A DNA stretch of 64,000 bases from a virus (Duplodnaviria > Caudoviricetes). A model generated the notes under the pieces. That model made no database searches, was not told where the DNA came from, and saw only the letters and a list, made by a program, of their open reading frames with translations. Of this stretch, positions 1,457-32,785 are shown piece by piece. A program made the translations under genes and the position numbers. Every line of letters starts with the position of its first letter. The stretch's first letter is position 1. Location: positions 32,001 to 96,000 of the IMG/VR virus record IMGVR_UViG_2974707348_000001. One strand, 5' to 3'.

Positions 1457-1846
1457 ATGTATAACTCAACCTTTAGAGAAAGACCACTAAGAACAAACGC
1501 ACCAGTACAGCCGAATAAAGGAGTTATGATGGACAATAAAAGAATTTCTGAAATCGTTGACGAAGAAATGATAAAGCAAGATGCAAACAGATATCGTAAT
1601 ATGAGGAAAATTCTCACGATTCCGAAAAGCATTGCGGATGAGTTGGATGAAATTTTTATTACATTCATCAGAGAACAACATAGTTCTAGTGTTTGGCATT
1701 TTCTGTGGCGAGCAGAGGAAATAGACTGGGAAATCGGTGAACAGTTATCGGCATTACTACCAGATGAAAACCAAGTTAATATCGCTGTCGCCTACCTCGC
1801 AGGAAAAGCTCTTGGAGTTGATTTAGTAGAGGTGGTGGAAGAATGA
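1457..1846 (+). CDS. Lactococcal prophage-type hypothetical protein (DUF1642-like)
   Basis: C-terminal AYLAGKALGVDLV recalled from lactococcal temperate phage proteins. Confidence 0.55.
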   Translation: MYNSTFRERPLRTNAPVQPNKGVMMDNKRISEIVDEEMIKQDANRYRNMRKILTIPKSIADELDEIFITFIREQHSSSVWHFLWRAEEIDWEIGEQLSALLPDENQVNIAVAYLAGKALGVDLVEVVEE

Positions 1847-4523: not shown

Positions 4524-4763
4524 ATGGAAAACGAACGTATTCAACAGTTAGCAGAATTTTATGAATGTCAAATGGATGTAACTCTATCTAAAAATGACAA
4601 GGAAGAGTTATTTCAAGTTTATTTAGAATATCAAAAAGAGAGTGCAAAAATAAAGAGTTCAAGAATGATACATTTAGCAAGAAGCTCTGGGAAAACTCAT
4701 CTTATAAGACATTTTGGTGTTCTTGAAATGTTTGAATATATGGAGGCAAAAAATGGAAAGTAA
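4524..4763 (+). CDS. Hypothetical protein
   Basis: AGGAG RBS. Confidence 0.65.
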   Translation: MENERIQQLAEFYECQMDVTLSKNDKEELFQVYLEYQKESAKIKSSRMIHLARSSGKTHLIRHFGVLEMFEYMEAKNGK

Positions 4764-4989
4764 AGAAATATTTACTAAAGCACAACTATCAATCTATCGA
4801 AACCTGCTGATTATCTGGATGAACAATTCAGACCTAAGATTTAATCAGTTTATATCTAATCTTCAAGTAGATTTTAATAATCGGCAGTTTAGAAAATATT
4901 CACGTAGTGATGGAACACCAGATTTGTTCTATTTAAGCGATGAAAAATTCGCAGAATTTTTAGAAGATTTAATAGAGGAGAATAGTTAA
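4753..4989 (+). CDS. Hypothetical protein
   Basis: GGAGG RBS. Confidence 0.65.
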   Translation: MESKEIFTKAQLSIYRNLLIIWMNNSDLRFNQFISNLQVDFNNRQFRKYSRSDGTPDLFYLSDEKFAEFLEDLIEENS

Positions 4990-6438: not shown

Positions 6439-6575
6439 TATGTCGTTAGTCGTGGTTGACTGATTGAGTAGCTTGATAGATGATTTTCAATGTATGATGA
6501 GACAATATTGTAAAGGATTCTAAATTGTTAATCGGAGAGTGAAAAATTTTGCAGGTTCGATTCCTGTCGACATAG
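6439..6575 (+). ncRNA. tRNA-like RNA with ~90-nt insert replacing the anticodon/variable arms
   Basis: Perfect acceptor TATGTCG/CGACATA, D arm AGTC-GTGGTT-GACT, T arm GCAGG-TTCGATT-CCTGT. Confidence 0.6.
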
Positions 6576-6591: not shown

Positions 6592-6855
6592 ATGAAAGAA
6601 CATATTGTAGTAATTGATGAAGTTCATGAAGATAACATGGAGAAACTAGAAAACATAAATAATGCAAAAGAATCTGTGCAAGCTCTCTCTGACTCTTTTG
6701 TTGAAGCTGGAGAGAAAATGAGAGAATTAGCAGATTCTTTACATGGTGAATCTATTGATGTTTATGACCCATTAACAGATAAACGTAAGAAAGAACAATC
6801 TTTTAAAAACGGTGTAAGTAATCTTAAACATATCAAAAAACGTGGAGGAAAGTGA
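6592..6855 (+). CDS. Hypothetical protein
   Basis: AAGGAGG RBS. Confidence 0.7.
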   Translation: MKEHIVVIDEVHEDNMEKLENINNAKESVQALSDSFVEAGEKMRELADSLHGESIDVYDPLTDKRKKEQSFKNGVSNLKHIKKRGGK

Positions 6856-7404: not shown

Positions 7405-8481
7405 ATGACAATTATCAACGTAAGCGACACTTTTCAAATCTTTCCAGATGACCTTAAAACATTTGACAAACTTCCTAAGGGAACATATACAGTTCGATTT
7501 AATAAAATGGAAGGCTTCTCTCTTATTAAGCGTGAGAATCTAACTGTTGACGAAAAAATGTATGGTAATCATAAAGAAAAAGCTGAAAAAGCTCTTAAAA
7601 CATTTGGTCTCTTTGACCGTTCTATGGGAATTATTTTATCGGGAGATAAGGGTATTGGTAAAACAATGTTTACACGCTACCTTGCAAATCAGTTTGTTGA
7701 AACTAAAGAACTTCCTGTTATTCTAATTGACCAAGCCTACTTTGGTATTGCAGACTTCCTTTCATCTATCAAACAAGAAGCAATGATTTTATTTGATGAG
7801 TTTGAGAAAGTATTTGATGAACGCAATGACAATTCTGAAAGTCAAGATTCATTACTTGGTTTGTTTGATGGTCTATCAAGTACAAAACACATGTATGTAA
7901 TCACTGTGAATGACCTACATAGATTGAGTAGTTTTATGCAAAATCGTACAGGACGTTTCCATTATCATTTCCGATTCAAATATCCTAAAGGTCAAGAAGT
8001 TCGTGATTACATCCATGACCACGTTCAAGACATTGATGAATCAGTTTTAGATAAAATTGTTGACTTTAGCACAAAAGTTAAAGTTACATTTGATACACTT
8101 CGTTCAATTGCTTTTGAAGTAGCAAATGGACATAACTTTTCTGAAACTATTGAAGACCTTAATATCAGTCAAGGAGACGCTTCTCAATACTCTATCTTGG
8201 TTAAACTTAAAGATGGAACAATTCATAAAGTTCAAGATAAGTACGAAGTTGATTTATTCGAAGATTTTGTAAAATTTGGTGGTCATATTGATGGAGAATG
8301 GGTTAAGTTTGTCTTTGAATCTAAGAACTTACACTCAATTGCGTCCGAGGATGGATACCTTGTAGACACAGGTATTGAAGCTAAAGTTTATGATGATGAA
8401 GATGGCGAATATGTTCCACTAGAAATCGCCGAGATTCTTCTTAAAATCAACAATGATGCAAACATTAAATATACAGTTTAA
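7405..8481 (+). CDS. AAA+ ATPase
   Basis: Walker A GDKGIGKT, Walker B ILFDEFEK, R-finger RTGRF. Confidence 0.88.
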   Translation: MTIINVSDTFQIFPDDLKTFDKLPKGTYTVRFNKMEGFSLIKRENLTVDEKMYGNHKEKAEKALKTFGLFDRSMGIILSGDKGIGKTMFTRYLANQFVETKELPVILIDQAYFGIADFLSSIKQEAMILFDEFEKVFDERNDNSESQDSLLGLFDGLSSTKHMYVITVNDLHRLSSFMQNRTGRFHYHFRFKYPKGQEVRDYIHDHVQDIDESVLDKIVDFSTKVKVTFDTLRSIAFEVANGHNFSETIEDLNISQGDASQYSILVKLKDGTIHKVQDKYEVDLFEDFVKFGGHIDGEWVKFVFESKNLHSIASEDGYLVDTGIEAKVYDDEDGEYVPLEIAEILLKINNDANIKYTV

Positions 8482-8508
8482 AATATTTAGACACGCAAGT
8501 GTCTATAA

Positions 8509-8581
8509 GGTTCTATAGCTTAGATGGTAAAGCCCTCTGCCCATAACAGAGTTAACGCAGGTTCAAGCCCTGCTAGAACCA
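8509..8581 (+). tRNA. tRNA-Met/Ile2 (CAT)
   Basis: Cloverleaf GGTTCTA/TAGAACC, anticodon arm CTCTG-CCCATAA-CAGAG, T loop TTCAAGC. Confidence 0.85.
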
Positions 8582-8629
8582 TTCCCAAAAGGGAAAATAG
8601 ACAGATAGATAGAAAGAGAGGTACTAACC

Positions 8630-8860
8630 ATGATTTTAAAATATGGAGTACATAACGGTAAAGGAGAAACAGTTGTTAATATCGTAGACAACATCACAAG
8701 TGTAGAGGAGGTTGAAGGGAGTAATGCCCCCATCTTCCACCATGAAAGAGGAGATAAACCTCGGACATATTTCGGCAATCTCAAAGAGAATGAATATATT
8801 ATCTTTATGTATTTGATGAACGATGATTTTAAAACAATTAAAATTTACAAGAGGGATTAA
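8630..8860 (+). CDS. Hypothetical protein
   Basis: GAGG RBS. Confidence 0.65.
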   Translation: MILKYGVHNGKGETVVNIVDNITSVEEVEGSNAPIFHHERGDKPRTYFGNLKENEYIIFMYLMNDDFKTIKIYKRD

Positions 8861-8862
8861 AC

Positions 8863-9231
8863 ATGAAACGTATAAAAACACAGACTATATCATTTGATAT
8901 GAATGAAGTGAAAGCATTGACAGGTTTTACTTTAAAAAACTCATGGGGGAACTATGTTCTTGAACATGAAAAATATGGAGTTATCCATGACGTCGTTGAA
9001 GGTGAAGATGGAGAATCTTGGACAAATGGTCTGTTTAATTGCCACATGACTGAGTTAGAAGGTGCCCTAAGACATTATGTTCATCAAAATTTTAGTCTTG
9101 ACTATTTCGATATCGTACAGAACGGTCGATTTGAATATGATACTGTTGGGCATACTGTTCAATTCCATTCTGAAAATGAAGTTACAGTATATTTTATTCT
9201 TGAGGATGAAAAATATTGGGAGGTATCTTAA
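8863..9231 (+). CDS. Hypothetical protein
   Basis: GAGGG RBS. Confidence 0.7.
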   Translation: MKRIKTQTISFDMNEVKALTGFTLKNSWGNYVLEHEKYGVIHDVVEGEDGESWTNGLFNCHMTELEGALRHYVHQNFSLDYFDIVQNGRFEYDTVGHTVQFHSENEVTVYFILEDEKYWEVS

Positions 9232-9279
9232 TTTACTTTTTATTTTATTGCTTTTAAATATAATATGTAAGGAGAAAAT

Positions 9280-9474
9280 ATGGATACAACAACTGCATTA
9301 AAAATAACAGCAACAGCTGTAATTGCGACACTCTTTGAGTATGGATGGTATAAGAGTGTCGAGTGGATTTCTGAATGGAATTATACATGTGGAGTGATAT
9401 GGTTATTAGTGACATTTGCGATACAATTATTTTTAGTTCTTAGATTTACTGGTGATTTTCTTGATTTATTTTAA
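9280..9474 (+). CDS. Small membrane protein
   Basis: AAGGAG RBS, two hydrophobic segments. Confidence 0.65.
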   Translation: MDTTTALKITATAVIATLFEYGWYKSVEWISEWNYTCGVIWLLVTFAIQLFLVLRFTGDFLDLF

Positions 9475-9483
9475 AGTTTATGC

Positions 9484-9512
9484 TTGACAAACATTAAAAG
9501 ATATGGTATAAT
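9484..9512 (+). promoter_or_regulatory. sigmaA promoter
   Basis: TTGACA-17-TATAAT with TG extension. Confidence 0.85.
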
Positions 9513-9537
9513 ATTTATATAACGCAAGGAGAGAAAC

Positions 9538-9963
9538 ATGGAAGAGAAATATATCGAATATCAAACAATGGTAGAAGAAATCATTCTAGGTCGTCGTATT
9601 GTTGTTATTGTTCCAGACAATATGCAAGATTATTCTAGGTTAAATAAAAAGTTAATTAACGATGGAGTTCATTATGAAAATCTATGGCTTGACTTACATA
9701 TGCCAAAAGACAGAATTAACATAATTAAATTAAGTACCTCCAATGGTCGTGAAAAACTTAAGCTTAAACCATTAACATTCTTAGTTGTTACAGACCCTTA
9801 TACTATGGAAGCTCTTGAAGTATATGCTGGTAAGAGTGATATTCTATATGTCGGTATGGATGGAAAAGGTAATTTATTAGATGTAACAGATAATTTAGAG
9901 TATATTTACGACAAATTCTTTCAGCCATTTCAATACTTTGAAGAAGTTCGAGGAGATTTGTAA
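9538..9963 (+). CDS. Hypothetical protein
   Basis: AAGGAG RBS. Confidence 0.7.
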   Translation: MEEKYIEYQTMVEEIILGRRIVVIVPDNMQDYSRLNKKLINDGVHYENLWLDLHMPKDRINIIKLSTSNGREKLKLKPLTFLVVTDPYTMEALEVYAGKSDILYVGMDGKGNLLDVTDNLEYIYDKFFQPFQYFEEVRGDL

Positions 9964-9997
9964 GATTAAATAATTTAAAAAAAATTCAACTTTATAC

Positions 9998-10026
9998 TTG
10001 ACATTATATCAAAATTATGGTATAAT
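9998..10026 (+). promoter_or_regulatory. sigmaA promoter
   Basis: TTGACA-17-TATAAT with TG extension. Confidence 0.85.
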
Positions 10027-10058
10027 ATTAATATAGTCAAGTGAGAGAGGTTGATTGA

Positions 10059-10658
10059 ATGAAAGAAATTGATTCAAAAGAGTTCTTTCCTATAAAAAGA
10101 TATGAAGGTATTTATGAAATCAATACTAACGGAGATATTCGTTCAGTAGATAGAATAATAACAACTAAAGGAAGCAATGGAAGGGGCTCTTACACTTCTC
10201 ATAAAAAGGGAGTTCCAATGAAGAGTTTTCAAAATGGTAGTGGTTATCTTCAAATTAGATTAAGTGTAAATGGTAAATGTAGAATGGAATATGTACATTG
10301 TCTTGTATATGATACTTTCATTGGTATCGAAGATAAGAAAAATGATATAGACCACTTAGACCATAACAAATTAAATTGTTCATTGAATAATTTAGAGGAA
10401 ATAACCCATAAAGAAAATATGAGAAGAATGCGTAAATTCTATGGTATAGAAGCTAAACCCAAAGAAAAGAAAAGCCGAAGAACTTATACATATGATGAAA
10501 TGAAGGAAGCTCTTGAAAGACTTAAAGCTGAACCAATGTCTAAGGTCTGTAAAGACTATGGAATTTCTGATAAAGGTTTATCAAAAAGACTTAAGAGTGT
10601 AGGTCTTCCATATCAAATGAAGGAAATAAATAAATACTTTAATAACAACTTCTTCTAG
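10059..10658 (+). CDS. Free-standing NUMOD4-HNH homing endonuclease
   Basis: YEGIYEINTNGDIRS (NUMOD4), VHCLV..F, IDHLDHNKLNCSLNNLE (HNH). Confidence 0.85.
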   Translation: MKEIDSKEFFPIKRYEGIYEINTNGDIRSVDRIITTKGSNGRGSYTSHKKGVPMKSFQNGSGYLQIRLSVNGKCRMEYVHCLVYDTFIGIEDKKNDIDHLDHNKLNCSLNNLEEITHKENMRRMRKFYGIEAKPKEKKSRRTYTYDEMKEALERLKAEPMSKVCKDYGISDKGLSKRLKSVGLPYQMKEINKYFNNNFF

Positions 10659-10667
10659 TTGTTATCT

Positions 10668-10740
10668 GCTCGGTTGGTGAAGCTGGATATCATGCAAAAT
10701 TTCTAATTTTGTGTCAAGGGTTCAAATCCCTTACTGAGTA
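10668..10740 (+). tRNA. tRNA-Arg (TCT)
   Basis: GCTCGGT/ACTGAGT acceptor, CAAAA-TTTCTAA-TTTTG, AAGGG-TTCAAAT-CCCTT. Confidence 0.85.
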
Positions 10741-10871
10741 TATCAAGTCAATCTTGATTGATTTCTTTATTAGATTAAATGAAGTGGTGGAGGTACAGAT
10801 GAATCTGTAACGTACACATGGGTTGGGGGTACGGTAAGTAGTGTAGCTTATCGCTCGACCATTTTTATTAA

Positions 10872-11217
10872 GGGGATGTAAAGGTTTCGACAGACTATGG
10901 CAATCTCAAATCACATTCCGACAGGGATAGTCGTAAAAACCAAACTAAATATAATTGCAAATACTCAATTAGCTGTAGCCTAAGCTACAAAAAAGTTTAA
11001 GTAATTAAACAGCTAGTAACTGAGACATCGGTAGGTCACTAGTACAAAACAGATGTGTGATGGATTCTGATAAGTCACGATTAACAATCAGAACAGAGTT
11101 AGTAGATAGTTGTTTATTCAAGAAACTAACAATGTGTATCCAATGAATAAACTATGAATGTAAGAAAGTTTTAAGATATGTATAGTTTGGACGCGGATTC
11201 GATTTCCGCCATCTCCA
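10872..11217 (+). ncRNA. ssrA: tmRNA, tag ANTQLAVA* at 10957-10983
   Basis: 5' GGGGATGTAAAGGTTTCGAC, 3' GCGGA-TTCGATT-TCCGC-CATCTCC-A with G3.U70; resume context ATAATT-GCA. Confidence 0.9.
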
Positions 11218-11259
11218 TCATGTTTTTAAAACATATTTAAAAAACATATTACTTTATAC

Positions 11260-11288
11260 TTGACAAACATTAAAAAATGTGTTATAAT
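11260..11288 (+). promoter_or_regulatory. sigmaA promoter for RNA island
   Basis: TTGACA-17-TATAAT. Confidence 0.85.
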
Positions 11289-11465
11289 AGTATATAGTGA
11301 TTATTAAATGAAATAGAGTGCGAGGTCAGTCATATCATTATGATAGTGGACTGAATGACTAGAGTAAAAAGACTAACAATCTTCTAGTCTTAGAATAGGC
11401 AAGTTCCGTTCAATGTCGCCCAAGATTTCGGTTGGAGAAACTGAGAAGACAGCTTTATTTCTAAA

Positions 11466-11538
11466 GGTTTGTTGGTGTAGTGGTTATCACGCTTGCCTGT
11501 CACGCAAGAGAACACGGGTTCGAATCCCGTACGAGCCG
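11466..11538 (+). tRNA. tRNA-Asp (GTC)
   Basis: CTTGC-CTGTCAC-GCAAG anticodon arm, canonical T arm. Confidence 0.93.
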
Positions 11539-11715
11539 TAGATAAGATAGTAATACGAGTCTTATCGCCCTCTAGGGTTCACTGTAATGCCTAGGGTAAA
11601 AGGCTTTAGCCTAGTCCAGTATGGTAGTTTTAGTAACTTTATAACAAAGTTCTAAAGTCATCGAGGATATTGGACTAATGTAACACTACTAAATGTTAGA
11701 AAGTTAGTAGTCAAA

Positions 11716-11777
11716 GGTTAACGAGTGGTAGCAGTAGTTATTAAATGTTCAGCTGATGAAGTGGACAGCCAAGTATA
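11716..11777 (+). repeat. 62-nt repeat, copy 1 (copy 2 at 13882-13943)
   Basis: 59/62 identical by direct comparison. Confidence 0.9.
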
Positions 11778-11905
11778 GGGTGCTTAGGATAATAATAAAG
11801 ATAGTCCTAATTGTTAAATGAGTAAAACTATCCAAGTCGACGGAAACTAACAGCCCTTTGTATATTATATGTCAGTGAACCTTTAACGTAGCTGGCATAT
11901 AATAA

Positions 11906-11977
11906 CAGGATATAGTGTTAATGGTAGCATGCGTGTTTTGGGAACATGTAGTGTTGGTTCGAGTCCAGCTATCCTGA
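11906..11977 (+). tRNA. tRNA-Pro (TGG)
   Basis: CAGGATA/TATCCTG, CGTGT-TTTGGGA-ACATG. Confidence 0.9.
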
Positions 11978-12183
11978 TGAGTGGTGTATAGTCCACACGT
12001 AAAGTGTCTAATCGGTGTACAACGTATGGCACAACTATACAAGCATGAGAGTATGATAAATACCTGACGGGTGTAGCTACTATTTGTTATAACTACTTAT
12101 GTTAGTTACCAGAAACCTAGTGTATTAAATGTCACAGGGTAAAGGATAGGAACAAAGACCTATCGAATAAGTGACAGCTGGTT

Positions 12184-12240
12184 AGAGTAATAGGTTGCAA
12201 CAGGTCACGACTGTGGAGGGTCCGAGTCCCTTCTGCTCTG
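12184..12240 (+). ncRNA. Degenerate mini-tRNA-like element
   Basis: AGAGTA/TGCTCT acceptor, GAGGG-TCCGAGT-CCCTT T arm, no D stem. Confidence 0.45.
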
Positions 12241-12300
12241 TTGAGGGAGCATAAACCTGGCGAAAAGTTATGTGGAGGAATAAACCTGGCGAAAAATTCA

Positions 12301-12358
12301 TCCGATATTATGGTTAAATAAAGGACGCTTTATGTTGGTTCGATTCCAACTGTCGGAT
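12301..12358 (+). ncRNA. Anticodon-less mini-tRNA
   Basis: TCCGATA/TGTCGGA acceptor, GG linker, ATAAAG-GACG-CTTTAT, GTTGG-TTCGATT-CCAAC. Confidence 0.7.
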
Positions 12359-12418
12359 ATAGGTGTTGCTTATTCACCGTATAATAAGCTAGAAAAGTAA
12401 GTATAGTAGGTAAATAAA

Positions 12419-12934
12419 ATGACAAATCCAATTCTAATCAAAGAATTAAGTTTTCAACTTAAAGAATATCGAGATATCTTAACAGATATTATTAAGTTAT
12501 CTGCACGTTCTGATGACCAAGCAAATTCAGCTAAAAATATATTATTTCAAATATTTTATCATACAGAATGGATGATTCAAATGTATGCTGGTAATTATGA
12601 AGAAAAACCATACGGAGACTCCGAAGATTTAAGTTTTAAAGAAGGAAAAGTTTCTCAAAATATTGTAAAATATATTATGGATAACTTCAAAGGTATTCCA
12701 CTTACAGAAGAAGGTTTGAGTAAGTTGACTAAGAAAGAAAAAGAATTTTTAAATCCTTTCGAAGACCTATTATCTATCACCCATAGAATGATAAGAGCTG
12801 TTGTAGATTATTCAGATAGTCATTCTGAAAGTAAAACTATAGACAGAACAGATGCACAACCTATGAGTATTTTATATTTCATTGATTCACTGAAAGAAAG
12901 AACTGCTTATGCTATGGAAAAAGAAGTATACTAA
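12419..12934 (+). CDS. Hypothetical protein inside the RNA island
   Basis: 171-aa ORF, weak RBS. Confidence 0.7.
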   Translation: MTNPILIKELSFQLKEYRDILTDIIKLSARSDDQANSAKNILFQIFYHTEWMIQMYAGNYEEKPYGDSEDLSFKEGKVSQNIVKYIMDNFKGIPLTEEGLSKLTKKEKEFLNPFEDLLSITHRMIRAVVDYSDSHSESKTIDRTDAQPMSILYFIDSLKERTAYAMEKEVY

Positions 12935-13073
12935 TTTAGGTGACTCACTACCTATACCCCAAATGTGAAGCTTAAAGGGGGTTAATAACACTATTCCCTA
13001 GGTTTGAATCCTTGAAAATTATCGGTAAGCGATGATTGCAAAATTCATAGTGGATGGAGCAAGAGTGTTTCAT

Positions 13074-13147
13074 TGGTTGGTAGCTCAGTTGGTAGTAGCA
13101 CTAGTCTCCAAAACTAGGTGTCGTGAGTTCGAATCTCACCCAATCAG
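13074..13147 (+). tRNA. tRNA-Trp (CCA)
   Basis: CTAGT-CTCCAAA-ACTAG, canonical arms. Confidence 0.92.
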
Positions 13148-13212
13148 TATGTAAGAGCTGTGCACAGTTACTTACAGAGTTAGGTCAAAGGATTAATTAA
13201 CCTTAACCAAAC

Positions 13213-13266
13213 GGCTTGTTTTTGGTAATAACATGCGTTAACTGAGTTCGATTCTCAGGCAAGTCT
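13213..13266 (+). ncRNA. Anticodon-less mini-tRNA
   Basis: GGCTTGT/GCAAGTC acceptor, TTTTGGTAA linker, TAAC-ATGC-GTTA, CTGAG-TTCGATT-CTCAG. Confidence 0.7.
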
Positions 13267-13322
13267 TATCAGTACCTTATCCGCTTAAGTAGAAATACAG
13301 CGCATTAGATAAGGGCGATTGA

Positions 13323-13394
13323 ATCCGTTTAGTGTAGTGGTAAGCACATCAGATTCCAAACCTGATAACGTGGGTTCGATTCCTACAATGGATG
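13323..13394 (+). tRNA. Second tRNA-Trp (CCA)
   Basis: ATCCGTT/AATGGAT, TCAGA-TTCCAAA-CCTGA (31-39 mismatch). Confidence 0.85.
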
Positions 13395-13607
13395 TTATAT
13401 GTGTGCAAGTCTCTCATAAAGGGAGATGGTGTTAAATGCGGAAGATGTCCGACAGCCATATAAAAACAACACAGCCAAAATACGACTCTATATAGATATT
13501 TTGGTTTGCAATCTTGGTGGTAATCGTTATAGAGACGGTAAGTCCGAAAATGATAGGGAAGGTGTTGTATGCCTATCTACGAGAGTGTTCAAGAAGCTCT
13601 CAATTAT

Positions 13608-13679
13608 ACAGGGTGGGTGGCAAGGAGTCGCATTAGTTTTATAGGCTAAATAAGAGCGGTTCGATTCCGTTACCCCGAA
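13608..13679 (+). tRNA. Degenerate tRNA-Ile (TAT)
   Basis: TTAGT-TTTATAG-GCTAA, AGCGG-TTCGATT-CCGTT; acceptor has mismatches. Confidence 0.5.
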
Positions 13680-13881
13680 TATTACTGAAAAGTAATTAAA
13701 AGGAACTTTGAGTAGTTCGCCTTTATGGAAACGGGTTGTTAGTGTATACCGCAAAAGAAAACTATCCGTTACTCTTTACGATATAAGAAGCTTAAAATCA
13801 TGTTTGGTCTTTGCATATCATTCCTAAAGACTAAGGTGTACTGATTGACGGTGCTTAAATGTTATAGAGTTGACAGCCAAT

Positions 13882-13943
13882 GGTTAACGAGTGGTAACAG
13901 TAGTTATTAAATGTTCAGCTGATGTAGTGAACAGCCAAGTATA
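13882..13943 (+). repeat. 62-nt repeat, copy 2
   Basis: 59/62 identical to 11716-11777. Confidence 0.9.
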
Positions 13944-14052
13944 CATTGGTCTTGATAGATAATGTGAAGGTTATATTAGCTAGTCTATGATATAACTCAA
14001 AAAACTACTTGCACAGTACTCGATTTGTAGTTTACCAATACACAATTTGGTT

Positions 14053-14129
14053 TCCCACTTCGTTTAAACATTGGAAGAAGACTGCCTATTCGAGAACAGG
14101 CAACCTCGGTTCGATTCCGAGGGTGGGGA
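14053..14129 (+). ncRNA. tRNA-like RNA with aberrant 10-nt anticodon loop
   Basis: TCCCACT/GGTGGGG, TGCCT-ATTCGAGAAC-AGGCA, CTCGG-TTCGATT-CCGAG. Confidence 0.6.
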
Positions 14130-14157
14130 TTTAATTTAAAATATTATTACTCATCTC

Positions 14158-14186
14158 TTGACAAACTCATTTGATTATGGTATAAT
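14158..14186 (+). promoter_or_regulatory. sigmaA promoter
   Basis: TTGACA-17-TATAAT with TG extension. Confidence 0.85.
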
Positions 14187-14224
14187 AATATATGTAAGTT
14201 AAAAAAACGTAAGGAGAACAAAAT

Positions 14225-14338
14225 ATGGGATGTTTAATTCCGATTGTATTAATTGTATTTTTAATCAATCCAGCTATGGGTTTAATGACAGCAATTATTT
14301 TATTGATTGTATTGGCACTAGCAAGTCTTAAAAAATAA
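14225..14338 (+). CDS. 37-aa hydrophobic membrane peptide
   Basis: AAGGAG RBS; MGCLIPIVLIVFLINPAMGLMTAIILLIVLALASLKK; not in ORF track. Confidence 0.7.
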   Translation: MGCLIPIVLIVFLINPAMGLMTAIILLIVLALASLKK

Positions 14339-14351
14339 GGAGAAAACACAA

Positions 14352-15008
14352 ATGACACAAAGTAAAACACTCACAGTACAAGAAGCACTTAATGAACTTA
14401 AAGTTCTTGACAAACGTATTGAACGTAAACTTGGAGACACTAAATATGTAGGTGTTGTTCAAGAAGACAAACTTGTTTATCCTGCATCATCAAAAGGTGA
14501 TAAAGATAAATTCATTTCAGAGGCAAAATCTAGTATTGATTCATTACTTGATTTGATTGCTTATCGTCATGCTTTGAAAGCTGGTGTATTGCGTTCTAAT
14601 GCGTTAACAGAAGTTGTAATTGGAGACAAAACAATGACAGTTGCAGAAGCAATTGATTATAAAACTTCAATCCAAAGTGAAAAAGATTTGGTTCAAACTC
14701 TTGTTAATGATTTGACTCAAGCGACAACTAAGGCGACACGTATTAATGAGGATATTGATAAGACTCTTGAAAAGAAACAAAATAGCTTGTTAAGCTCAGA
14801 CAAAGACGATAAAAATCCTGATATTATTAAATTCTTGAAAGAACAAGCTGAGAGCGAAAAAGCAACAGTTCTTGAATTGGAAGTTGGTAAAGCTCTTGTA
14901 AGTGATTACACCAAAGCTAAACTTGACTCAATTGAACAATTTGAACAAACAGTTGATTTCAAATTAACTGCATCAAATGTTGCAACAGAAATTACCGTTG
15001 AGTGGTAA
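14352..15008 (+). CDS. Coiled-coil protein (DIP1984/DUF6847-like by recall) upstream of a large ncRNA
   Basis: AAGGAG RBS; TVQEALNELKVL...MTVAEAI...SNVATEI; helical heptads. Confidence 0.75.
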   Translation: MTQSKTLTVQEALNELKVLDKRIERKLGDTKYVGVVQEDKLVYPASSKGDKDKFISEAKSSIDSLLDLIAYRHALKAGVLRSNALTEVVIGDKTMTVAEAIDYKTSIQSEKDLVQTLVNDLTQATTKATRINEDIDKTLEKKQNSLLSSDKDDKNPDIIKFLKEQAESEKATVLELEVGKALVSDYTKAKLDSIEQFEQTVDFKLTASNVATEITVEW

Positions 15009-15023
15009 TAATTAAGTTATAAT

Positions 15024-15399
15024 CATGTTATGACGAACAATCTAAAGTATAGATTTCCAGATAGTTCTGTTTTTCAGAGGTTCTTATAACTGGAAATAAA
15101 TAATAAATATGACGAACTTCTGATACTATAATATAATATAAAAATATGATGAATCTCAAAAAGAGAGGTTATGTATTCAAGACGGTAAGGATGAGTCCTT
15201 ATTCGTAGGAATAGATAAAAACTACTTCATAGATTATAGTTCAAAGCTCATGCTTTATAGCTTAGAGTTTATATCTTATATTGGATAATGAATCCAGTTA
15301 TAGATTAAGTTTGAAGATTTAAGTTTTCTTCAAAATCCTAGAGTTACGTTTTGTGACTTTCTATATCAGTTTGGTTGTACGCTAGGCTGTCATAACATG
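15024..15399 (+). ncRNA. Putative ~375-nt structured ncRNA with heptamer array
   Basis: 11-bp closing helix CATGTTATGAC/GTCATAACATG, internal hairpins, crossing pairings, no long ORF. Confidence 0.7.
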
Positions 15400-15401
15400 G
15401 T

Positions 15402-15438
15402 AAAATAAGGACTACTTCAGTAGTTCTTATTTTTTTTA
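15402..15438 (+). terminator. Intrinsic terminator
   Basis: AATAAGGACTAC-TTCA-GTAGTTCTTATT followed by T-run. Confidence 0.85.
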
Positions 15439-15448
15439 TACTTTTCTC

Positions 15449-15477
15449 TTGACAAAGCAAAATAGTTATGGTATAAT
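15449..15477 (+). promoter_or_regulatory. sigmaA promoter
   Basis: TTGACA-17-TATAAT with TG extension. Confidence 0.85.
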
Positions 15478-15511
15478 ATATTATAACCGATTGAAAGGAA
15501 TGGTATTAACA

Positions 15512-22247: not shown

Positions 22248-25200
22248 ATGGATAATTTATTTGTTGTTAAGAAAAGAACAGATGAGAAACAAGAAAGGGT
22301 GACGGAAGAGTGGAACTTTGATAAGGTAATTTCTGCCTGTCAAAAGTCAGCTCAACACATAGACAAACCTCTAAAGAAGGAACAAATCGCTAAGATTAAA
22401 TCCTTAGTAGAACTTGCCATTGCTAAGCGTCAAGATGATATTTTAGCTGATACAGATACTCAACATGAAGATAAACTTCATTACATTAATGTTCGTGAAA
22501 TTCACGATATTGTTTTGTCAGCTCTTAAACAAGTTGATACTGATATTTATGATTCATATCATGAATATCGAAATTATAAAATATCGCAAGATAAGCATTA
22601 TCGTGAACTATACAAGGATTTAGACAGTCTTAAGAATGGAATTTATACTGAGAATGCAAACAAAGATAGCTCTATTAATTCAACCAAGCGTTCTCTTCTT
22701 GCTGAAATGACTCAGAAGAAAATTGTGACTGACTTTATTCTTCAAAAGAACTGGGCTAAGGCTCATGAAGAAGGATGGATTTATATTCATGACTTAGGAG
22801 ATTTGTACTGGCGAACATTCAATTGCGACAACGTTGATTTAGCAAATATCATTAAGACTAAAAAGCAAAAAGATGGAGAGTATGCTTTTACTTTAAATGG
22901 TATTAAATATCCTGAACCTAAATCAATTAGTGCAGCATTCAATTTAGTGGCGGATTTGATTTTACAAATGTCTAGCCAACAATTCGGTTTAACAAAATCA
23001 GTCTAGCGACTACCAAACTGCCGAATCAAAACAGTGTTAACCTATCACAATAGGGGTCTTGATTAACATCAAGGCTAACGAGGAAGGGTTGGAATGGCTT
23101 AATCTCGTGATTATATAGAAAGTGGAATACTTTAATGGAAAATAAAAAACAATTTAATGACTTTAAAGATATAATTATCAAACTCTACGAAAAAGAAGGA
23201 AAATCAATTAAATATATTAGTAATCTCTTGGGCTTTGGAAGAAGCAATTTATCCAAACAAATTCAAGAGTGGGGGTTGATAGAAAGCCAAAATAAACATT
23301 TAAAACCATCTACGGTTAAATTTATCAACAAGCACAGAACGATGATAAAAAGTAGATTAGATAATGATGTAACTATTGCGAACATAGCTAGAGAGTTACA
23401 GGTAAAAGCAAACTATTTGTCTGTTACGATTATTCGAAATGATATGGTTTTGGAAAAAGCTAATGATGATAGACTTAAGCGTTCACATATTAGAAAACAA
23501 GCTAGAATAGAAGAACTAAAAGAGAAATCTTGTCTCACATATGATTTTAAAGATTTAGACAATGAGGAGTGGAGAGAGATTTTAGGATATCCAAACTACT
23601 TTGTATCAAATTTTGGTAGATTTAAAAAATATATGAAAAGTTCAGAAAGTTTTATTCTTATGAAAAAGACATATAATAAAGCGGTAGAGTATAATTATAT
23701 TAGTATGATTAATGATAAAAACAAACGAAAAAATCTTAGAGCTTGTAGAGTTGTTGGATTTGCATTTGTCGATGGATTTTCTAAAGAGAAAAATACAATT
23801 AATCATATTAATGGGGACAAAACAAATGACTCATCTTCTAATTTAGAATGGATTTCACAGCATGACAACAATCCTCATAGTCATAGAGTGTTGAATAGAG
23901 CTGTTAATAAAAACAAAAAGAGATATGAAAAAATAGTTTATAAAGAAAAGTATGAATTTAAGACAGTTATAGGTCTTGCAAAGTTCCTAGGGGTTTCTGA
24001 AGCGCAAGCTCATAGATTATTAAAACAGTCTCCTGACATATATTATACCCTTAAAGATAAAAAATAAATAATTTTCCAGAATATAATTGTAACGACTATA
24101 TATAAATATATTTAGAATCATCATAGGATGATTCGAAACACACTGATAGATAAACACAAATATCTATAAGAAATAGTCTAAGGTAGGGTTGGAACACAAA
24201 CCTCCCTATTCTTGGGTTTTAGTGTCCAGAACTTTGACCATCTTCTAGCACCTTATGCGGAATTAACTTACGATAAATCATTCAAAAGATATATGGAAAA
24301 GGGAATTGCATATAATACAGCACGTGAAATGGCAGAAGAAGATACTCTTTATGCAATAAAACAAGGTGTTCAAGGGTTTGAACTTGAAATAAGTACTGTT
24401 TCTAATGCGTTGGGACAAATTCCATTTACATCAATTGGTTTTGGGTTAGATACATCAAAATGGGGTCGTGAAATTACTCGTGCTTTCTTGCTTGAGCGTT
24501 CTGAACCAGATTGTGTACTTGTCTTTCCTAAATTAATCTTTGCTAGTGCGAAAGAAGTCAACTTAAATCCTGATTCACCTAACTATGATTTATTCCAATT
24601 GGCTATTAAATGCAGTTCAACTAAACTATATCCTGACTATGTTTCAATGGATAATGGTATTCTTGCACCTGCATACAGTCGTCATAAAGATGACTTAAAC
24701 CAAATTTTATCAGTACCAATGGGATGCCGCTCGTATAACAATGTTGAGTTTATTAATCCCTTAGAGGATTCAGAAGACTTCCAAAAAGAAGTTTATAAAG
24801 GACGTGGAAATGTTGGTGTAGTAACAATTAATTTCCCTAAAATTGCCATAGAATCAGGTGGTGATTGGAATAAATTCTATGAATTACTACATAAGTATAC
24901 CAATATGACGATGGATATCTTAGATTGGAGATATAATTATGCTGGAGAAGCTAGAGCAGAAAGCAATCCTCTCATGTGGATGGAAGGTGGAGCATGGAGA
25001 CGACTCAATCACGATGAAAAAATCTCTAAAACAATCTTTAATTTCACTGCCTCTGTTGGCATAATTGGGTTCAATGAAGCTTTGAACTACATGTATTTGA
25101 ATAATGGGTATGAAGTTGATAACTTACCAAACTACAAGAGTGGTGAACAACGTCAACAAGACCAAATAAAATTCATGGAAGTCCTTAATTCAATTAAAGA

Positions 25201-26971
25201 ATTTAGAAATATCCATGACGCTGTTCGTATTGACGAAGATGGTGTTCAAACTCGTGTTTGGGATGAAGAAGGAAACTTTGTTCACCCAGACCCTGACAAG
25301 AAATATCTTGAAGTTTATGAAGGTTTAGACACGACACACAAAACAACTATTATTCCTCGTATGTATTCTATCTATGGAACACCTGCTGAATCTCTTGTGT
25401 ATAAAATGATGAAGCAATTACAAAAACAGTATGGATTCATCAATGGTATTACAGCTCAAGAAGATGGAAAAGGACGTAATTATATTACCAACTCATTCCA
25501 CCAACCAGTGTGGGAAAAATCTAATATTTTTGATAAGATTGATTTTGAAGCACCTTTCCATTTGGATAAAATGGCAAGTGGTGGACATATCAGTCAAAAT
25601 GAATTTGCATATGGTACACCAGTAACAGTTCTTGAACAAACTGTGCGTTATGCAATGGAGAAGGGAATGTACTATGGCATCAATATTGCATCTAGTCATT
25701 GTTTTGATTGTGGATGGAATGGTGAAACAGCAGACACCTGTGCTGAGTGTGGCTCAGAGAATGTAGTAACAATTCAGCGTGTTTGTTTTACAGGAGAAAA
25801 TCTTGTGTTTACCGACAAAGGATACGTAAAAATCAAAGATATCAAAGAGGGTGACAAGGTTTGGACAATGAATAAGAGATTTAAGCCTGTCGTTCAAGTT
25901 GGTAAAAAAGAAGTAGAAAAAACAATTAATCTTAAAATTTCAGGAACAGAAGATGTTGTATCAACTTTAGACCATCCTTTCTTTGCTAAAAAAGATAAAA
26001 ATTCAGAAACAGAATTAATCGAAGCACAAAACCTAACAAAAGACTCTTATATTGCAGTACCAATCAATCAAGAATCTATTGTTCCGAAAGTAGAAGGACT
26101 ACCTGTTGAAGATAAAGATTTCTGGTGGTTGGTTGGTCGTTATTTGGGTGATGGTTGGGTCAAACAACATAGTGAAAACTCTATTAGAAGTTATATTTGT
26201 GTTGGAAAAGATGATTCTAATGGTATTGAAAAAATTCAATATGTAATAGATAAATTTAACCTTGGTTATACAGATAGAAAAGAGGCTCGGACAACATATA
26301 CATGGTCTACATTTGATAAAACATTTAATAATTTTATGAAACAAATGGGACATGGAGCTGAAAATAAACAGATTCCTGTAGAATGGCTCAATCTACCTAT
26401 TGATTTGGCGAGAGAACTTCTTTATGGATATCTTTCTGCTGATGGGTGCGTTCATAATAATAAACAAATTTGTAATTCTGTTTCTCGTAAATTGTTATAT
26501 GGAATTGGACAACTTGTATTAAAAGTTGAAAACAAAGGATATACCATTTACAAAAATAGAGATGCTGGAACTATGGAGATAGAAGGTAGAACAGTAAACA
26601 CTAAAGCTAGATATGACCTAAAATTCTCTTTAGGAAAACCAACTATGAGTTTTGTTCAAAATGGTTATGCCTTCTTTAGAGTTAGAGGTTCTGAAATTGT
26701 AGAAAAAAATGATACAGTTTACTCTTTGACGGTTTTAGATGATGCAAGTTATACAATTCAAAATTTACTTGTTAAGAATTGCGGTTATCTTTCTATTACA
26801 TCACGTAACGGACATAGTGTTGTCAATGCTGGTAAGACAGAGGAATTACTTGAACGTGTTAATCACGTTGGAAATGCTAAAAAAGAATATACTAAAAACT
26901 TTGAGAAAAAACATGACATACAAAGAGATGTTGTATCTAAAGAGTTCTCAATGTTTGAATCGGGGGAATAG
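22248..26971 (+). CDS. nrdD: Anaerobic (class III) ribonucleotide reductase; exons 22248-22988 + 24215-26971, contains an intein
   Basis: ATP cone, ENANKD, IHDL, QQFG|GFS, MGCRS, TPAESL, YITNSFH, CxxC pairs, RV|CGY. Confidence 0.93.
22989..24214 (+). mobile_element. Group I intron with HNH ORF
   Basis: P1 TTCGGT/GCCGAA, P7 GACTA/TAGTC, terminal G; restores QQFGGF. Confidence 0.88.
23135..24067 (+). CDS. Intron-encoded NUMOD4-HNH endonuclease with N-terminal HTH region
   Basis: EEWREILGYPNYFVSNFGR, INHINGDKTNDSSSNLEW. Confidence 0.85.
   Translation: MENKKQFNDFKDIIIKLYEKEGKSIKYISNLLGFGRSNLSKQIQEWGLIESQNKHLKPSTVKFINKHRTMIKSRLDNDVTIANIARELQVKANYLSVTIIRNDMVLEKANDDRLKRSHIRKQARIEELKEKSCLTYDFKDLDNEEWREILGYPNYFVSNFGRFKKYMKSSESFILMKKTYNKAVEYNYISMINDKNKRKNLRACRVVGFAFVDGFSKEKNTINHINGDKTNDSSSNLEWISQHDNNPHSHRVLNRAVNKNKKRYEKIVYKEKYEFKTVIGLAKFLGVSEAQAHRLLKQSPDIYYTLKDKK
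25784..26779 (+). mobile_element. Intein in NrdD (332 aa, LAGLIDADG)
   Basis: CFTGE...TLDHPF...LVGRYLGDG...LLYGYLSADG...VKN|C. Confidence 0.92.
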
Positions 26972-32300: not shown

Positions 32301-32785
32301 AATCTTCAATCGAAGAACATGGTTTATATAACTCTTATCGTTTGGCTGTGGCTCCAAATGGTTCTATTTCTTATATCAATGAAGCAACTGCATCTATTCA
32401 TCCAATCGTACAAAAGATTGAGAAACGTTCAGAAGGTAAGCGTGGTGATGTATTCTACCCAGCACCTTATCTTTCAGAAGGTCTTCCTTACTATGAATCA
32501 GCTTATAACATTGACCAGCGCCAAATCATTGATGTCTACGCAGAAGCGCAAAAACATGTTGACCAAGCTCTTTCTATGACACTCTTCATGAATGCAGACC
32601 ACGGAAAAGATTTGTATGAGTGGAAAATTGGAACAAGTGGTGAAGACTCATTCACTACCCGTGATATTAACATCTTACGCAATTATGCATGGACTAAAGG
32701 TATTAAATCAATTTACTATGTTCGTACTTATCGTTCTGATGGTGAAGTTAGTTCAGTAAACGAATGTGAATCATGTTCAATCTAA
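29389..32785 (+). CDS. nrdE: Class Ib RNR alpha subunit; exons 29389-30549, 30906-31146, 31998-32785
   Basis: PATPTF, SCF, SNLC|[26 protein letters not shown], terminal CESC. Confidence 0.93.
30550..30905 (+). mobile_element. Group I intron 1 of nrdE (356 nt, no ORF)
   Basis: P1 GTGT/GCAC, P7 GACTA/TAGTC, terminal G; restores NLCSEI. Confidence 0.88.
31147..31997 (+). mobile_element. Group I intron 2 of nrdE with HNH ORF
   Basis: P1 GTAGGGT/GCTCTAC, P10 CGCCTA/TAGGCG, terminal G; restores GLGAMG. Confidence 0.9.
31353..31925 (+). CDS. Intron-encoded NUMOD4-HNH-NUMOD1 endonuclease
   Basis: [36 protein letters not shown]. Confidence 0.9.

Follow-up and report, generated by a model that had tools for sequence, protein, structure and literature searches.

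Three elements of 53-58 nt, here called A, B and C, lie on the plus strand within a tRNA/tmRNA cluster of a Lactococcus 949-group phage, the source of the 64-kb window (that is, the whole stretch of DNA analysed). Each has the design of a mini-tRNA, and this design occurs well beyond chance expectation. A, B and C are probably still tRNA-shaped RNAs that are unable to decode, because shrunken tRNAs of this kind recur in many Lactococcus phages. We put at roughly 45% the probability that such minis are retained as processing modules of the RNase P/RNase Z/CCA type within a long tRNA-mRNA transcript.

Architecture and genomic setting of the elements

In minimum-energy and centroid structures computed with RNAfold, A forms a 7-bp acceptor stem, a 10-nt linker containing GG, a 6-bp hairpin with a 4-nt loop, and a T arm with a 5-bp stem and the loop TTCGATT. 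B has a 7-bp acceptor stem that includes two G.U pairs, a 9-nt linker with GG, a 4-bp hairpin with a 4-nt loop, and a 5-bp T stem that also closes the loop TTCGATT. C combines a 6-bp acceptor stem and a 6-bp T stem, which give the same 12-bp stack as the usual 7+5, with a GG-containing linker of 10 nt and a 4-bp hairpin whose loop has 7 nt; the stems were independently recovered by RNAalifold. The T loop of C is TCCGAGT, with C in place of U at T-loop position 55 in the window. The shared design claimed in the preliminary description is reproduced both by the sequence and by RNAfold, including the unpaired 9-10-nt linker with GG in all three elements and the short hairpin in place of the D and anticodon arms, with a 4-nt loop in the two clear copies. 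The 7-bp acceptor stem and the TTCGATT loop hold for A and B but not for C, which had been rated the weaker copy and is so because of its divergent T loop.

A strict scan of the window required 7 bp of acceptor stem directly next to a 5-bp T stem whose loop is a T-loop-like 7-mer. It gave 11 matches (10 distinct T arms) on the plus strand versus none on the minus strand, and a mean of 0.43 over thirty shuffles. The matches comprise six of the seven tRNAs called by ARAGORN, A, B, an odd 76-nt tRNA-like sequence and one doubtful site; the weak tRNA-Ile is missed. With a looser T loop, applied to the whole 123-kb genome, C is also recovered (shuffle mean 1.5), and all convincing matches fall on the plus strand in a single cluster. 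Fold-energy z-scores are weak (-2.08, -1.76 and -0.19 for A, B and C) and do not single the elements out.

Standard models pass over all three. ARAGORN, which called seven tRNAs and one tmRNA, made no call at A, B or C, and a search of positions 8000-15500 with Rfam RF00005 (E<=10; gathering score 29 bits) gave no match at any of them; the sole contact of the three with Rfam tRNA-Sec is that of A, at 21.4 bits (gathering score 47). The elements have the 12-bp acceptor/T-arm stack and 7-nt T loop of a canonical tRNA and lack its anticodon arm (5-bp stem, 7-nt loop, conserved anticodon): the hairpin loops of A and B have 4 nt, the loop triplet of C varies among orthologues, and most Skunavirus copies of C are without any hairpin. 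Together with the lack of an encoded CCA, the stack and T loop appear, from sequence and modelled folds, to provide the shape required by RNase P, RNase Z and the CCA-adding enzyme. The likeness to the tRNA-like domain of tmRNA drawn in the preliminary description stands in general terms only: at position 3:70, A and B have C-G and C has A-U in place of G3:U70, there is no linked tag-coding part, and no Rfam tmRNA match was obtained at A, B or C. The armless mitochondrial type does not fit either, as the T arm is kept and the anticodon arm is gone. For bacterial Y-RNA-like (YrlA) mimics, no curated Rfam model matched in 8000-15500, where the sole match outside tRNA and tmRNA was Plastid-ycf2, on the reverse strand of tRNA-Met (36.8 bits, gathering score 65.7); non-tRNA Rfam families gave no match in five related loci. 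Three other candidates were rejected: fragments of prophage attachment sites (each element has the two acceptor strands, and integrase is absent among the scanned window ORFs), split or permuted tRNA halves (both ends are present in each element) and coding sequence (no ORF of at least 40 aa overlaps A, B or C).

The features of the cluster are collected in the table below.

Table 1. Features in and around the mini-tRNA cluster (window coordinates)
Feature	Position	Strand	Remarks
tmRNA	10872-11220		about 1 kb upstream of the minis, same cluster
Sigma-70-type promoter, perfect match	11260..11288	+	TTGACA, 17 nt, TG-extended TATAAT
tRNA-Pro(tgg)	11906..11977	+	likely parent type of A
Conserved structured spacer	11978..12183	+	separates tRNA-Pro from C; RNAalifold
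Mini-tRNA C	12184..12240	+	sequence, fold, looser scan; 23 distinct family members
Two direct 28-nt repeats, period 29	12242..12298	+	between C and A
Mini-tRNA A	12301..12358	+	sequence, strict scan, fold; six distinct variants
ORF171	12419..12934	+	function unknown; PHROG 6282
tRNA-Trp(cca) number 1	13073..13148	+	likely parent type of B
Mini-tRNA B	13213..13266	+	sequence, strict scan, fold; three distinct variants
Conserved structured spacer	13267..13322	+	B to second tRNA-Trp; 34 matching phage records
tRNA-Trp(cca) number 2	13323..13394	+	
Weak tRNA-Ile	13607-13680		ARAGORN

From the promoter at 11260, one transcription unit is predicted, comprising tRNA-Asp, tRNA-Pro, C, A, ORF171, tRNA-Trp, B and tRNA-Trp. 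The following perfect plus-strand promoter is at 14158, and the sole plus-strand terminator-like site between the two (13617-13631, a consensus match only) lies within the weak tRNA-Ile, downstream of all elements of the predicted unit. RNAalifold analysis of the spacer upstream of C in eight phages yielded an invariant 8-bp stem with nested stems, some of them with compensatory changes, and the spacer downstream of B has a fold z-score of -2.49. The repeat between C and A is present in single copy only in the Skunavirus-like contig L147. ORF171, which lies 60 nt after A and 139 nt before tRNA-Trp, has no Pfam match, and no tRNA-related function was found by Pfam or PHROG for it or eight neighbouring ORFs. 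Pfam searches of the 36 larger window ORFs show a module for replication and nucleotide metabolism that includes neither RNA repair nor CCA enzymes.

Distribution and conservation in lactococcal phages

Approximately 40 of 394 matching Lactococcus records were compared; prevalence figures from this set are biased, because most loci were fetched by mini-derived patterns. A, B and C were found again in other 949-group phages, and 936-type (Skunavirus) phages, sk1 among them, carry minis as well: C, A, and additional families with lengths of 45-62 nt. One of these, family D, is confined to 936-type phages among the loci examined, and its members score 27.5-29.3 bits against RF00005 (gathering score 29). 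Minis make up 34 of 140 strict-scan matches in lactococcal loci (mostly fetched by mini-derived patterns), versus approximately three of 415 in an unrelated background of 107 tRNA-bearing viral contigs, which was taken from a scan of viral contigs with a 14-base pattern that is too unspecific. Several phages (L010/L136, L065, L129 and L139) have two or three minis each, yet no ordinary tRNA by ARAGORN.

In Skunaviruses, the last mini always ends approximately 8 nt upstream of the ribosome-binding site of a small ORF, regardless of its family. PMBT69 has a 45-nt mini in the gap following the ATPase gene, where most relatives have tRNA-Met; AM1 is without an element in this slot. B occurs as three distinct variants (in AM1, LW81 and phiL47), and its slot in phage 949 is occupied by a full-length suppressor-type tRNA. 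The A slot of phiL47 holds a long tRNA-like sequence, which its authors describe as a tRNA-Ser with an intron (PMC3888941, Table 4). The acceptor stems of these two slot occupants differ from those of the minis. When full-length counterparts of A and B were sought, with acceptor stem and T arm kept as in the mini and an unconstrained interior of 15-50 nt, only mini-length copies came up; a metagenome scan for the same forms returned a duplicate of L147. The preliminary description had named full-length orthologues with random deletions as evidence against its proposal. The phage 949 and phiL47 slots bear this out halfway, but the deletions are not random decay, because the deleted forms are those conserved across phages. 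Broken copies include a C/D chimera in phage 340 and one D copy with a T-stem mismatch. Our literature searches found no prior description of such minis; in the records examined, the mini regions are left blank or overlaid by doubtful small ORFs.

Selection on the acceptor/T-arm half is suggested by the recurrence of the architecture in related phages with pair-preserving changes. Sequence comparison gives clear support for the T stem of C: among 23 distinct sequences from 949-type and 936-type phages, in which the interior varies over 51-62 nt and is unalignable, this stem is 99.1% paired, shows two-sided change in three of five pairs, and has a covariation score of 0.173, compared to 0.064 in shuffles and reached by 0 of 500. 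Support is modest for family D (10 distinct sequences), with one UA-to-CG compensation in addition to GU/AU switches. The six distinct variants of A are 100% paired, with one compensatory pair; pairing is retained at all three variable stem positions. The five other variable positions belong to loops or linker, and among these changes is the exchanged tetraloop of L147. These changes fit the structure but are not significant, being matched by 254 of 500 shuffles. B is nearly invariant across its variants. The earlier argument from common architecture to selection rather than decay applies to C and, more modestly, to D, but is not carried by A or by the barely varying B.

Shuffled linkers would lead one to expect 27.1 minis with GG within the first 14 linker nucleotides; 45 of 50 distinct minis have it. 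Identity of A and B between phages is 97-99%, as is that of their flanks, and the Skunavirus spacer that separates C from D matches D in conservation, so Skunaviruses provide no neutral yardstick. C and D have acceptor stems that hardly vary, alongside covarying T stems and drifting interiors. This invariance hints at a sequence-specific partner or at recent spread.

Possible origin and roles

Judged by resemblance, the minis look like shrunken duplicates of neighbouring tRNAs. The T arm and 3' strand of tRNA-Pro(tgg) are 86% identical to those of A, the T arm of tRNA-Trp(cca) number 1 is 85% identical to that of B, and D resembles Skunavirus tRNA-Trp minus approximately 23 nt; between-phage homology breaks precisely at tRNA-like ends or within T arms. 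Phage tRNA genes may have been duplicated and then have shed the D stem and anticodon arm through deletions in their interior. They would have retained the 12-bp stack of acceptor stem and T arm together with the T loop and a D-loop remnant that bears GG, the tRNA elbow.

These likenesses and breakpoints also speak for neutral relics, left over when tRNA cassettes with common T-arm sequence duplicated, suffered deletions and recombined, with apparent conservation due to recent cassette spread between co-infecting dairy phages. The chimera in phage 340 is consistent with such relics, as are the A and B flanks and spacers, which are conserved as strongly as the minis themselves, and the occurrence of similar truncated tRNAs, although rare, in unrelated phage tRNA clusters. 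We nevertheless regard this explanation as somewhat unlikely: the T stem of C has been repeatedly compensated on both sides while the interior diverged beyond alignment, GG is kept in the linker, minis are far more frequent among scan matches in the (selectively fetched) lactococcal loci than in the unrelated contigs, and they persist in phages without ordinary tRNAs. Furthermore, no other partial tRNA matched in the Rfam scan of 8000-15500 (E<=10); our own scan detects the acceptor-plus-T-arm kind only.

RNase P, RNase Z and the CCA-adding enzyme all recognise a tRNA by its acceptor/T-arm half; excision of the minis, and their continued use as cutting sites, would follow. For the retention of minis as processing modules, which we prefer, the architecture, its recurrence, the covariation in family C and the common orientation within one predicted transcription unit are observed, and we infer transcription, cleavage, CCA addition and a benefit to the phage. 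The promoter at 11260 would drive co-transcription of the minis, the real tRNAs and ORF171, and the minis would be excised by RNase P and RNase Z and given a CCA end like tRNAs. Cuts at the minis would free the ORF171 message, the adjacent tRNAs and the structured spacers from one another, and the excised 53-58-nt RNAs would be unable to decode. As CCA is not encoded in Pro, C, A, Trp, B or Trp, tRNAs and minis alike would need the same RNase Z/CCA route. Also in favour are the GG kept in the linker, the persistence of minis in phages that have no ordinary tRNA, and the placement of minis ahead of the small ORF in Skunaviruses and in the tRNA-Met gap of PMBT69. Against this proposal, extra cutting sites seem unneeded where B lies between two real tRNAs and where C and A stand in tandem; also, RNase P and RNase Z read shape rather than sequence, and near-invariant acceptor stems such as those of C and D are not what this would require. 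The broken copies, the tRNA-Met slot left without an element in AM1, the non-significant support for A and the lack of a neutral yardstick in Skunaviruses likewise count against it.

Among public sequencing runs, none contained half or more of the sampled words, and six RNA runs contained 5-6%. A 169-nt contig from an RNA run covers 13121-13300, including B, and has a G>A change at 13259 that converts a U.G pair of B to U-A; as an assembled contig it does not prove transcription. A Skunavirus-type contig of 280 nt, also from an RNA run, starts 21 nt upstream of a tRNA-Pro and stops 1 nt past the discriminator of a C-type mini, positions that in an assembled contig cannot show RNA ends. Run X19, one of four RNA runs compared, yielded nothing. 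These contigs are not counted as support because they cannot show ends or prove transcription.

The preliminary description had proposed two roles, processing punctuation and decoys. On the second, the excised, CCA-tailed minis would themselves be the product and might serve as decoys or sponges towards proteins whose target is the acceptor/T-arm half of tRNAs. The candidates are defence enzymes with modifying or cutting activity on tRNA 3' ends: AbiEii/MenT nucleotidyltransferases, CapRel-type pyrophosphokinases and tail-cleaving nucleases. Several different minis stand in tandem in each phage, though one cutting site would suffice, and the near-invariant acceptor stems with covarying T stems and drifting interiors are the pattern expected of a sequence-specific partner. 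Suitable defences are described in the literature: lactococcal AbiE is given in a review table as active on Skunavirus and as likely to transfer nucleotides to tRNAs (PMC13064643), Cas12a3 cleaves tRNA tails (PMC12851939), and phage tRNAs neutralise PARIS (PMC13064643). However, the toxins are enzymes, and a decoy substrate would therefore have to be very abundant. In the main text of a study of lactococcal systems, escape mutations for type II CBASS and PARIS (two of 13 systems) are outside the mini region, and positions are not given for five further intergenic escape mutations (PMC12184496). There is no tRNA-related enzyme among the 45 window ORFs scanned. We consider a decoy role unlikely in this general form. 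Its narrower version, in which minis are CCA-tailed anti-defence decoys whose fixed acceptor stem mimics the tRNA end hit by a host abortive-infection enzyme, seems distinctly improbable; here, real tRNA genes would have been recruited via duplication and shrinkage, and the enzyme, for instance an AbiEii-type nucleotidyltransferase or a tail-cutting nuclease, would be titrated or blocked by the minis.

A role at the DNA level, as part of a replication origin with the stems acting as hairpins or protein-binding sites, is suggested by reviews that put the 936-type origin at the right genome end, where Skunavirus minis occupy a non-coding stretch with highly conserved, repeat-rich spacers. We find this very hard to reconcile with the many stem positions that are G.T pairs on the plus strand only, which indicate a one-strand RNA, with the tRNA-specific T-loop and GG features, and with the mid-genome tRNA operon in which the 949-group copies lie.

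Significance and comparison with known systems

Conserved phage tRNA genes that do not decode would show that the acceptor/T-arm half is useful alone, possibly as built-in cutting sites in long transcripts or as small RNAs against enzymes that read tRNA ends. The 936-type phages are the main phages of dairy fermentations, and they and their hosts are tractable models. For annotation, these are genes that standard tRNA finders overlook.

Phage tRNA genes are now seen mainly as counter-measures to tRNA-targeting defences. With ordinary phage tRNAs (RF00005), A, B and C have in common the cluster, the strand, the T loop, the lack of an encoded CCA and, likely, descent; they differ in having no conserved anticodon loop. 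The tRNA-like domain of tmRNA shares the acceptor stem, T arm, reduced D loop and absence of an anticodon arm, but has G3:U70, a coding part and pseudoknots, all of which are missing from A, B and C. Other tRNA-like processing elements, such as MALAT1 mascRNA and the tRNA-like units found in murine gammaherpesvirus 68, are likewise tRNA-shaped, and their anticodon is defective or missing; cleavage by RNase P and/or RNase Z and CCA tailing serve to release neighbouring RNAs. These systems are eukaryotic and their processing has been shown experimentally, whereas that of the phage minis is inferred.

RNAC and RNAD of phage T4 are approximately twice the length of the lactococcal minis. They too are non-decoding, stable small RNAs encoded within a phage tRNA cluster and co-expressed with its tRNAs, and no role is assigned to them (PMC3014915, PMC9697503). 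By comparison of descriptions, the lactococcal elements differ from RNAC and RNAD in being cleanly reduced tRNAs of 45-62 nt, with several families per phage. Conserved reduction is also known from the armless mitochondrial tRNAs of nematodes, mites and spiders, whose genes are reduced to 42-60 nt (PMC12221289, PMC6706885). Those tRNAs keep the anticodon arm and decode, having given up the D and/or T arms, whereas the phage minis keep the T arm and acceptor stem and have no anticodon arm.

Structure and genomic setting of the mini-tRNAs

The window is drawn from the 123,023-bp genome of a 949-group Lactococcus phage (Audreyjarvisvirus). Three mini-tRNAs without an anticodon arm (A, B and C) lie in a cluster of RNA genes, every one of which is on the + strand. 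ARAGORN calls tRNAs for Met, Arg, Asp, Pro, Trp, Trp and a weak Ile in this cluster, plus a tmRNA; six tRNAs and the tmRNA are confirmed at the Rfam gathering score. ARAGORN also called a tmRNA in all but one of the seven examined 949-type records (the stretch of phage 949 being the exception), and a tmRNA feature is annotated in none of the seven. Relatives of the weak tRNA-Ile have the anticodon cat, compensatory anticodon-stem changes and an unusual D region. Elsewhere in the window, inteins or HNH endonuclease genes split the genes for ribonucleotide reductase and DNA polymerase III alpha.

Coordinates of the mini-tRNAs and other features (window positions, unless one of the compared phage loci or contigs, L, is named)
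Feature	Position	Strand	Description
Mini-tRNA A	12301-12358	+	acceptor 7 bp; linker 10 nt with GG; hairpin 6 bp, 4-nt loop; T stem 5 bp, loop TTCGATT
Mini-tRNA B	13213-13266	+	acceptor 7 bp; linker 9 nt with GG; hairpin 4 bp, 4-nt loop; T stem 5 bp, loop TTCGATT, identical to A's
Mini-tRNA C	12184-12240	+	acceptor 6 bp; linker 10 nt with GG; hairpin 4 bp, 7-nt loop; T stem 6 bp, loop TCCGAGT
ORF171	12419-12934	+	between A and tRNA-Trp
tmRNA	10872-11220	+	ARAGORN (10872-11217); Rfam 111.2 bits; complete gene, tag ends ANTQLAVA
tmRNA in relatives	L002 4366-4711; L003 3200-3545; L004 3372-3716; L005 3113-3459; L006 3113-3459; L007 6201-6545		ARAGORN
tRNA-Ile(tat)	13607-13680		ARAGORN call; Rfam only 19.8 bits
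Promoter matches	9484-9512, 9998-10026, 11260-11288, 14158-14186, 15449-15477	+	sigma-70, 12 of 12 positions
Terminator-like site	13617-13631	+	consensus match only
Spacers	11978-12183, 13267-13322		between tRNA-like genes
28-nt direct repeats	12242-12298		two copies, 29 nt apart, between C and A
ACTAACAGCCC motif	11846-11860; L008 ~835-850; L009 ~990-1005; L010 ~1483-1498; L011 ~1486-1501		seen by eye
76-nt tRNA-like	14053-14129		
Long tRNA-like	6439-6575		
phiL47 A-slot element	L003 ~4623-4772		long tRNA-like
Split genes	24212-26971, 29389-32785, 45304-49593		ribonucleotide reductase, DNA polymerase III alpha
Truncated tRNA-likes, unrelated contigs	L020 10067-10127, 12244-12300; L088 12334-12391		

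The sequences, together with minimum-energy and centroid folds from RNAfold, reproduce the shared design that a preliminary description had proposed for A, B and C. Its 7-bp acceptor stem and 5-bp T arm with TTCGATT hold for A and B, and in C 6+6 bp give the same 12-bp stack; C had also been ranked as the weaker copy, which it is because of its T loop. A custom scan for T arms directly adjoined by a 7-bp acceptor stem gave 11 matches (10 T arms) on the + strand of the window, against 0.43 per shuffle, and none on the - strand. When the loop rule was relaxed and the whole genome scanned, every convincing match fell within this cluster (1.5 in shuffles). Fold-energy z-scores of the three minis are weak (-2.08, -1.76 and -0.19). 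None was called by ARAGORN or matched by the Rfam tRNA model at E<=10; A scores 21.4 bits against Rfam tRNA-Sec, whose gathering score is 47. No ORF of at least 40 aa overlaps A, B or C.

Other unusual tRNA-like sequences occur in the window. One of 76 nt, called by neither ARAGORN nor Rfam, has a normal acceptor stem and T arm, with a 5-bp stem and 10-nt loop in the place of the anticodon loop; it is kept in 949, AM1, phiL47, WRP3, LW81 and AM4. A longer one has a perfect 7-bp acceptor stem, a D-like arm with GG and a T arm, its anticodon arm being replaced by an insert of ~80 nt. It ends 17 nt upstream of an ATG at 6592 and resembles in build the element at the site corresponding to A (the A slot) in phiL47; across 20 records from phages of the 949 type, its conservation is 86-94%.

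Distribution and origin

A 3.5-kb query around the minis matches AM1, AM2, AM3, AM8, AM9, AM11 and AM12 at 88.5% identity over 96% of its length, and WRP3, LW81, AM4, 949 and phiL47 partially. A was found in 949, AM1, WRP3, LW81 and AM4; B in AM1, LW81 and phiL47; and C, with greatly differing interiors, in 949, AM1, WRP3 and AM4. The C region matches 130 records: the top 19 are 949-group phages and many others are 936-type (Skunavirus). Among the best 60 of the 130, the next 41 have 75-79% identity to window positions 12170-12239/12242, the match lying near their right genome end. An IMG/VR pattern scan gave 26 loci for family C. The Skunavirus-like contig L147 also has A, with C, A and another mini in tandem; the sole metagenome match has the same sequence. 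Family D, known only from 936-type phages, consists of just an acceptor stem, a D-loop-like linker and a T arm (46-48 nt). Skunaviruses carry further mini families of 54, 48 and 57 nt, and PMBT69 has two minis of 45 nt each.

Counting the best match per T arm, 38 sources gave 192 matches, 74 at 45-62 nt and 118 at 64-87 nt, with length modes of 47-57 and 70-72 nt. A background set of 107 unrelated viral contigs bearing tRNAs (947 kb) gave approximately 415 matches of 64-94 nt in the strict scan and 15 short ones: two lactococcal copies, five inside ARAGORN tRNAs, five that were judged from their sequence to lie within ordinary tRNAs, and three separate truncated tRNAs (L020 twice, L088 once). 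The last, of 57-61 nt, lie between ordinary tRNAs on the same strand in large tRNA clusters. In the lactococcal loci, most of them retrieved by mini-derived patterns and several being duplicates of one phage, minis make up 34 of 140 strict-scan matches; compared with the three separate background cases, this indicates that minis exist elsewhere and are concentrated in lactococcal phages.

The T arm and 3' strand of A have 86% identity to the neighbouring tRNA-Pro, those of B have 85% identity to the neighbouring tRNA-Trp, and D resembles a Skunavirus tRNA-Trp minus ~23 nt. From these similarities, the minis most plausibly descend from tRNA genes that were duplicated and shortened. The B slot of phage 949 is occupied by a full-length suppressor-type tRNA whose acceptor stem is unlike B's, and homology to the window restarts exactly at 13267. 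The phiL47 A-slot element, listed by its authors as a tRNA-Ser interrupted by a 58-bp intron (PMC3888941 Table 4), has only the T arm in common with A. When full-length versions that combine A's or B's own acceptor stem and T arm were searched for, only mini-length copies came up.

Predicted transcript, selection and possible function

Five perfect TTGACA-17-TATAAT matches with an extended -10 lie on the + strand within 6 kb (consensus matches only). Between those at 11260 and 14158, the sole terminator-like site on this strand is within the weak tRNA-Ile, downstream of the second tRNA-Trp, so Asp, Pro, C, A, ORF171, Trp, B and Trp would share one predicted transcript. As read from the sequence, none of Pro, C, A, Trp, B and Trp encodes CCA, and searches gave no known function for ORF171. 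In Skunaviruses, ~8 nt separate the end of the last mini from the ribosome-binding site of a small downstream ORF.

The two spacers are conserved and structured in 949-type and 936-type phages: one has a covarying hairpin inside an invariant 8-bp stem, the other a 56-nt hairpin (fold z-score -2.49). They may be small RNAs freed by flanking cuts. Structure prediction gave none for the 28-nt repeats, present as a single copy in L147. In both phage groups, several different tRNA or tRNA-like genes are preceded, at a distance of 8-12 nt, by a conserved motif of ~16 nt (core ACTAACAGCCC; seen by eye).

Family C comprises 23 distinct sequences. Its T stem is 99.1% paired, with two-sided changes at three of the five pairs (11 cells) and a covariation score of 0.173, versus 0.064 in shuffles (0/500 reach the observed value) and 0.001-0.050 in slid controls. 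Its acceptor stem is almost invariant and its interior unalignable (51-62 nt); RNAalifold independently predicted the same two stems from eight longer stretches. Family D (10 distinct) shows a single compensation from UA to CG, switches between GU and AU, and one cell with broken pairing; 49/500 shuffles reach the observed value. Family A (6 distinct) is paired in every cell and keeps pairing at three variable stem positions (CG, UG, UA; UA, UG); five further variable positions are in the linker or loops, among them those of a differing tetraloop in L147, and the shuffle control is not significant (254/500). Family B comprises three near-identical variants. GG is found within the first 14 nt of the linker in 45 of the 50 distinct minis (27.1 expected), and four distinct sources have 2-3 minis each with no ARAGORN tRNA in the retrieved stretch. 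Against selection stand a broken C/D chimera in phage 340, a C, not U, at T-loop position 55 of the window's C, and, in Skunaviruses, a C-D spacer conserved as much as D, which leaves no neutral yardstick there. That A and B are neutral relics is possible, if rather doubtful.

The most likely reading, with a probability of roughly 0.45, is that the minis are kept as tRNA-shaped sites in a long tRNA-mRNA precursor, at which RNase P and RNase Z would cut. Minihelices made of acceptor stem and T arm are substrates of both enzymes and of the CCA enzyme. Service as cutting sites would explain the retention of only the acceptor/T half and elbow alongside a drifting interior, but leaves unaccounted for the tandem minis, the position of B between two tRNAs and the fixed acceptor sequences. 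These three features would fit decoys, as would lactococcal AbiE, which is listed as active on Skunavirus and thought to add nucleotides to tRNAs (PMC13064643). We consider decoys unlikely. Escape mutations from lactococcal systems whose sites are given in the main text of PMC12184496 map elsewhere. A role as DNA at the 936 replication origin, placed by a review at the right genome end (PMC3445015), is highly improbable because of + strand G.T pairs and tRNA-specific loops.

Relation to known elements

Full-text literature searches found no description of such mini-tRNA elements. In the portions available, the phiL47 (PMC3888941) and AM-phage papers give ordinary tRNAs only, and no tRNA or tmRNA is reported for the phages covered by a 936-type survey (PMC6105707). 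The minis are filed as tRNA-like, non-decoding RNAs. Their closest precedent among phages is the pair RNAC and RNAD, small RNAs of the T4 tRNA region with roles described as unknown (PMC3014915).
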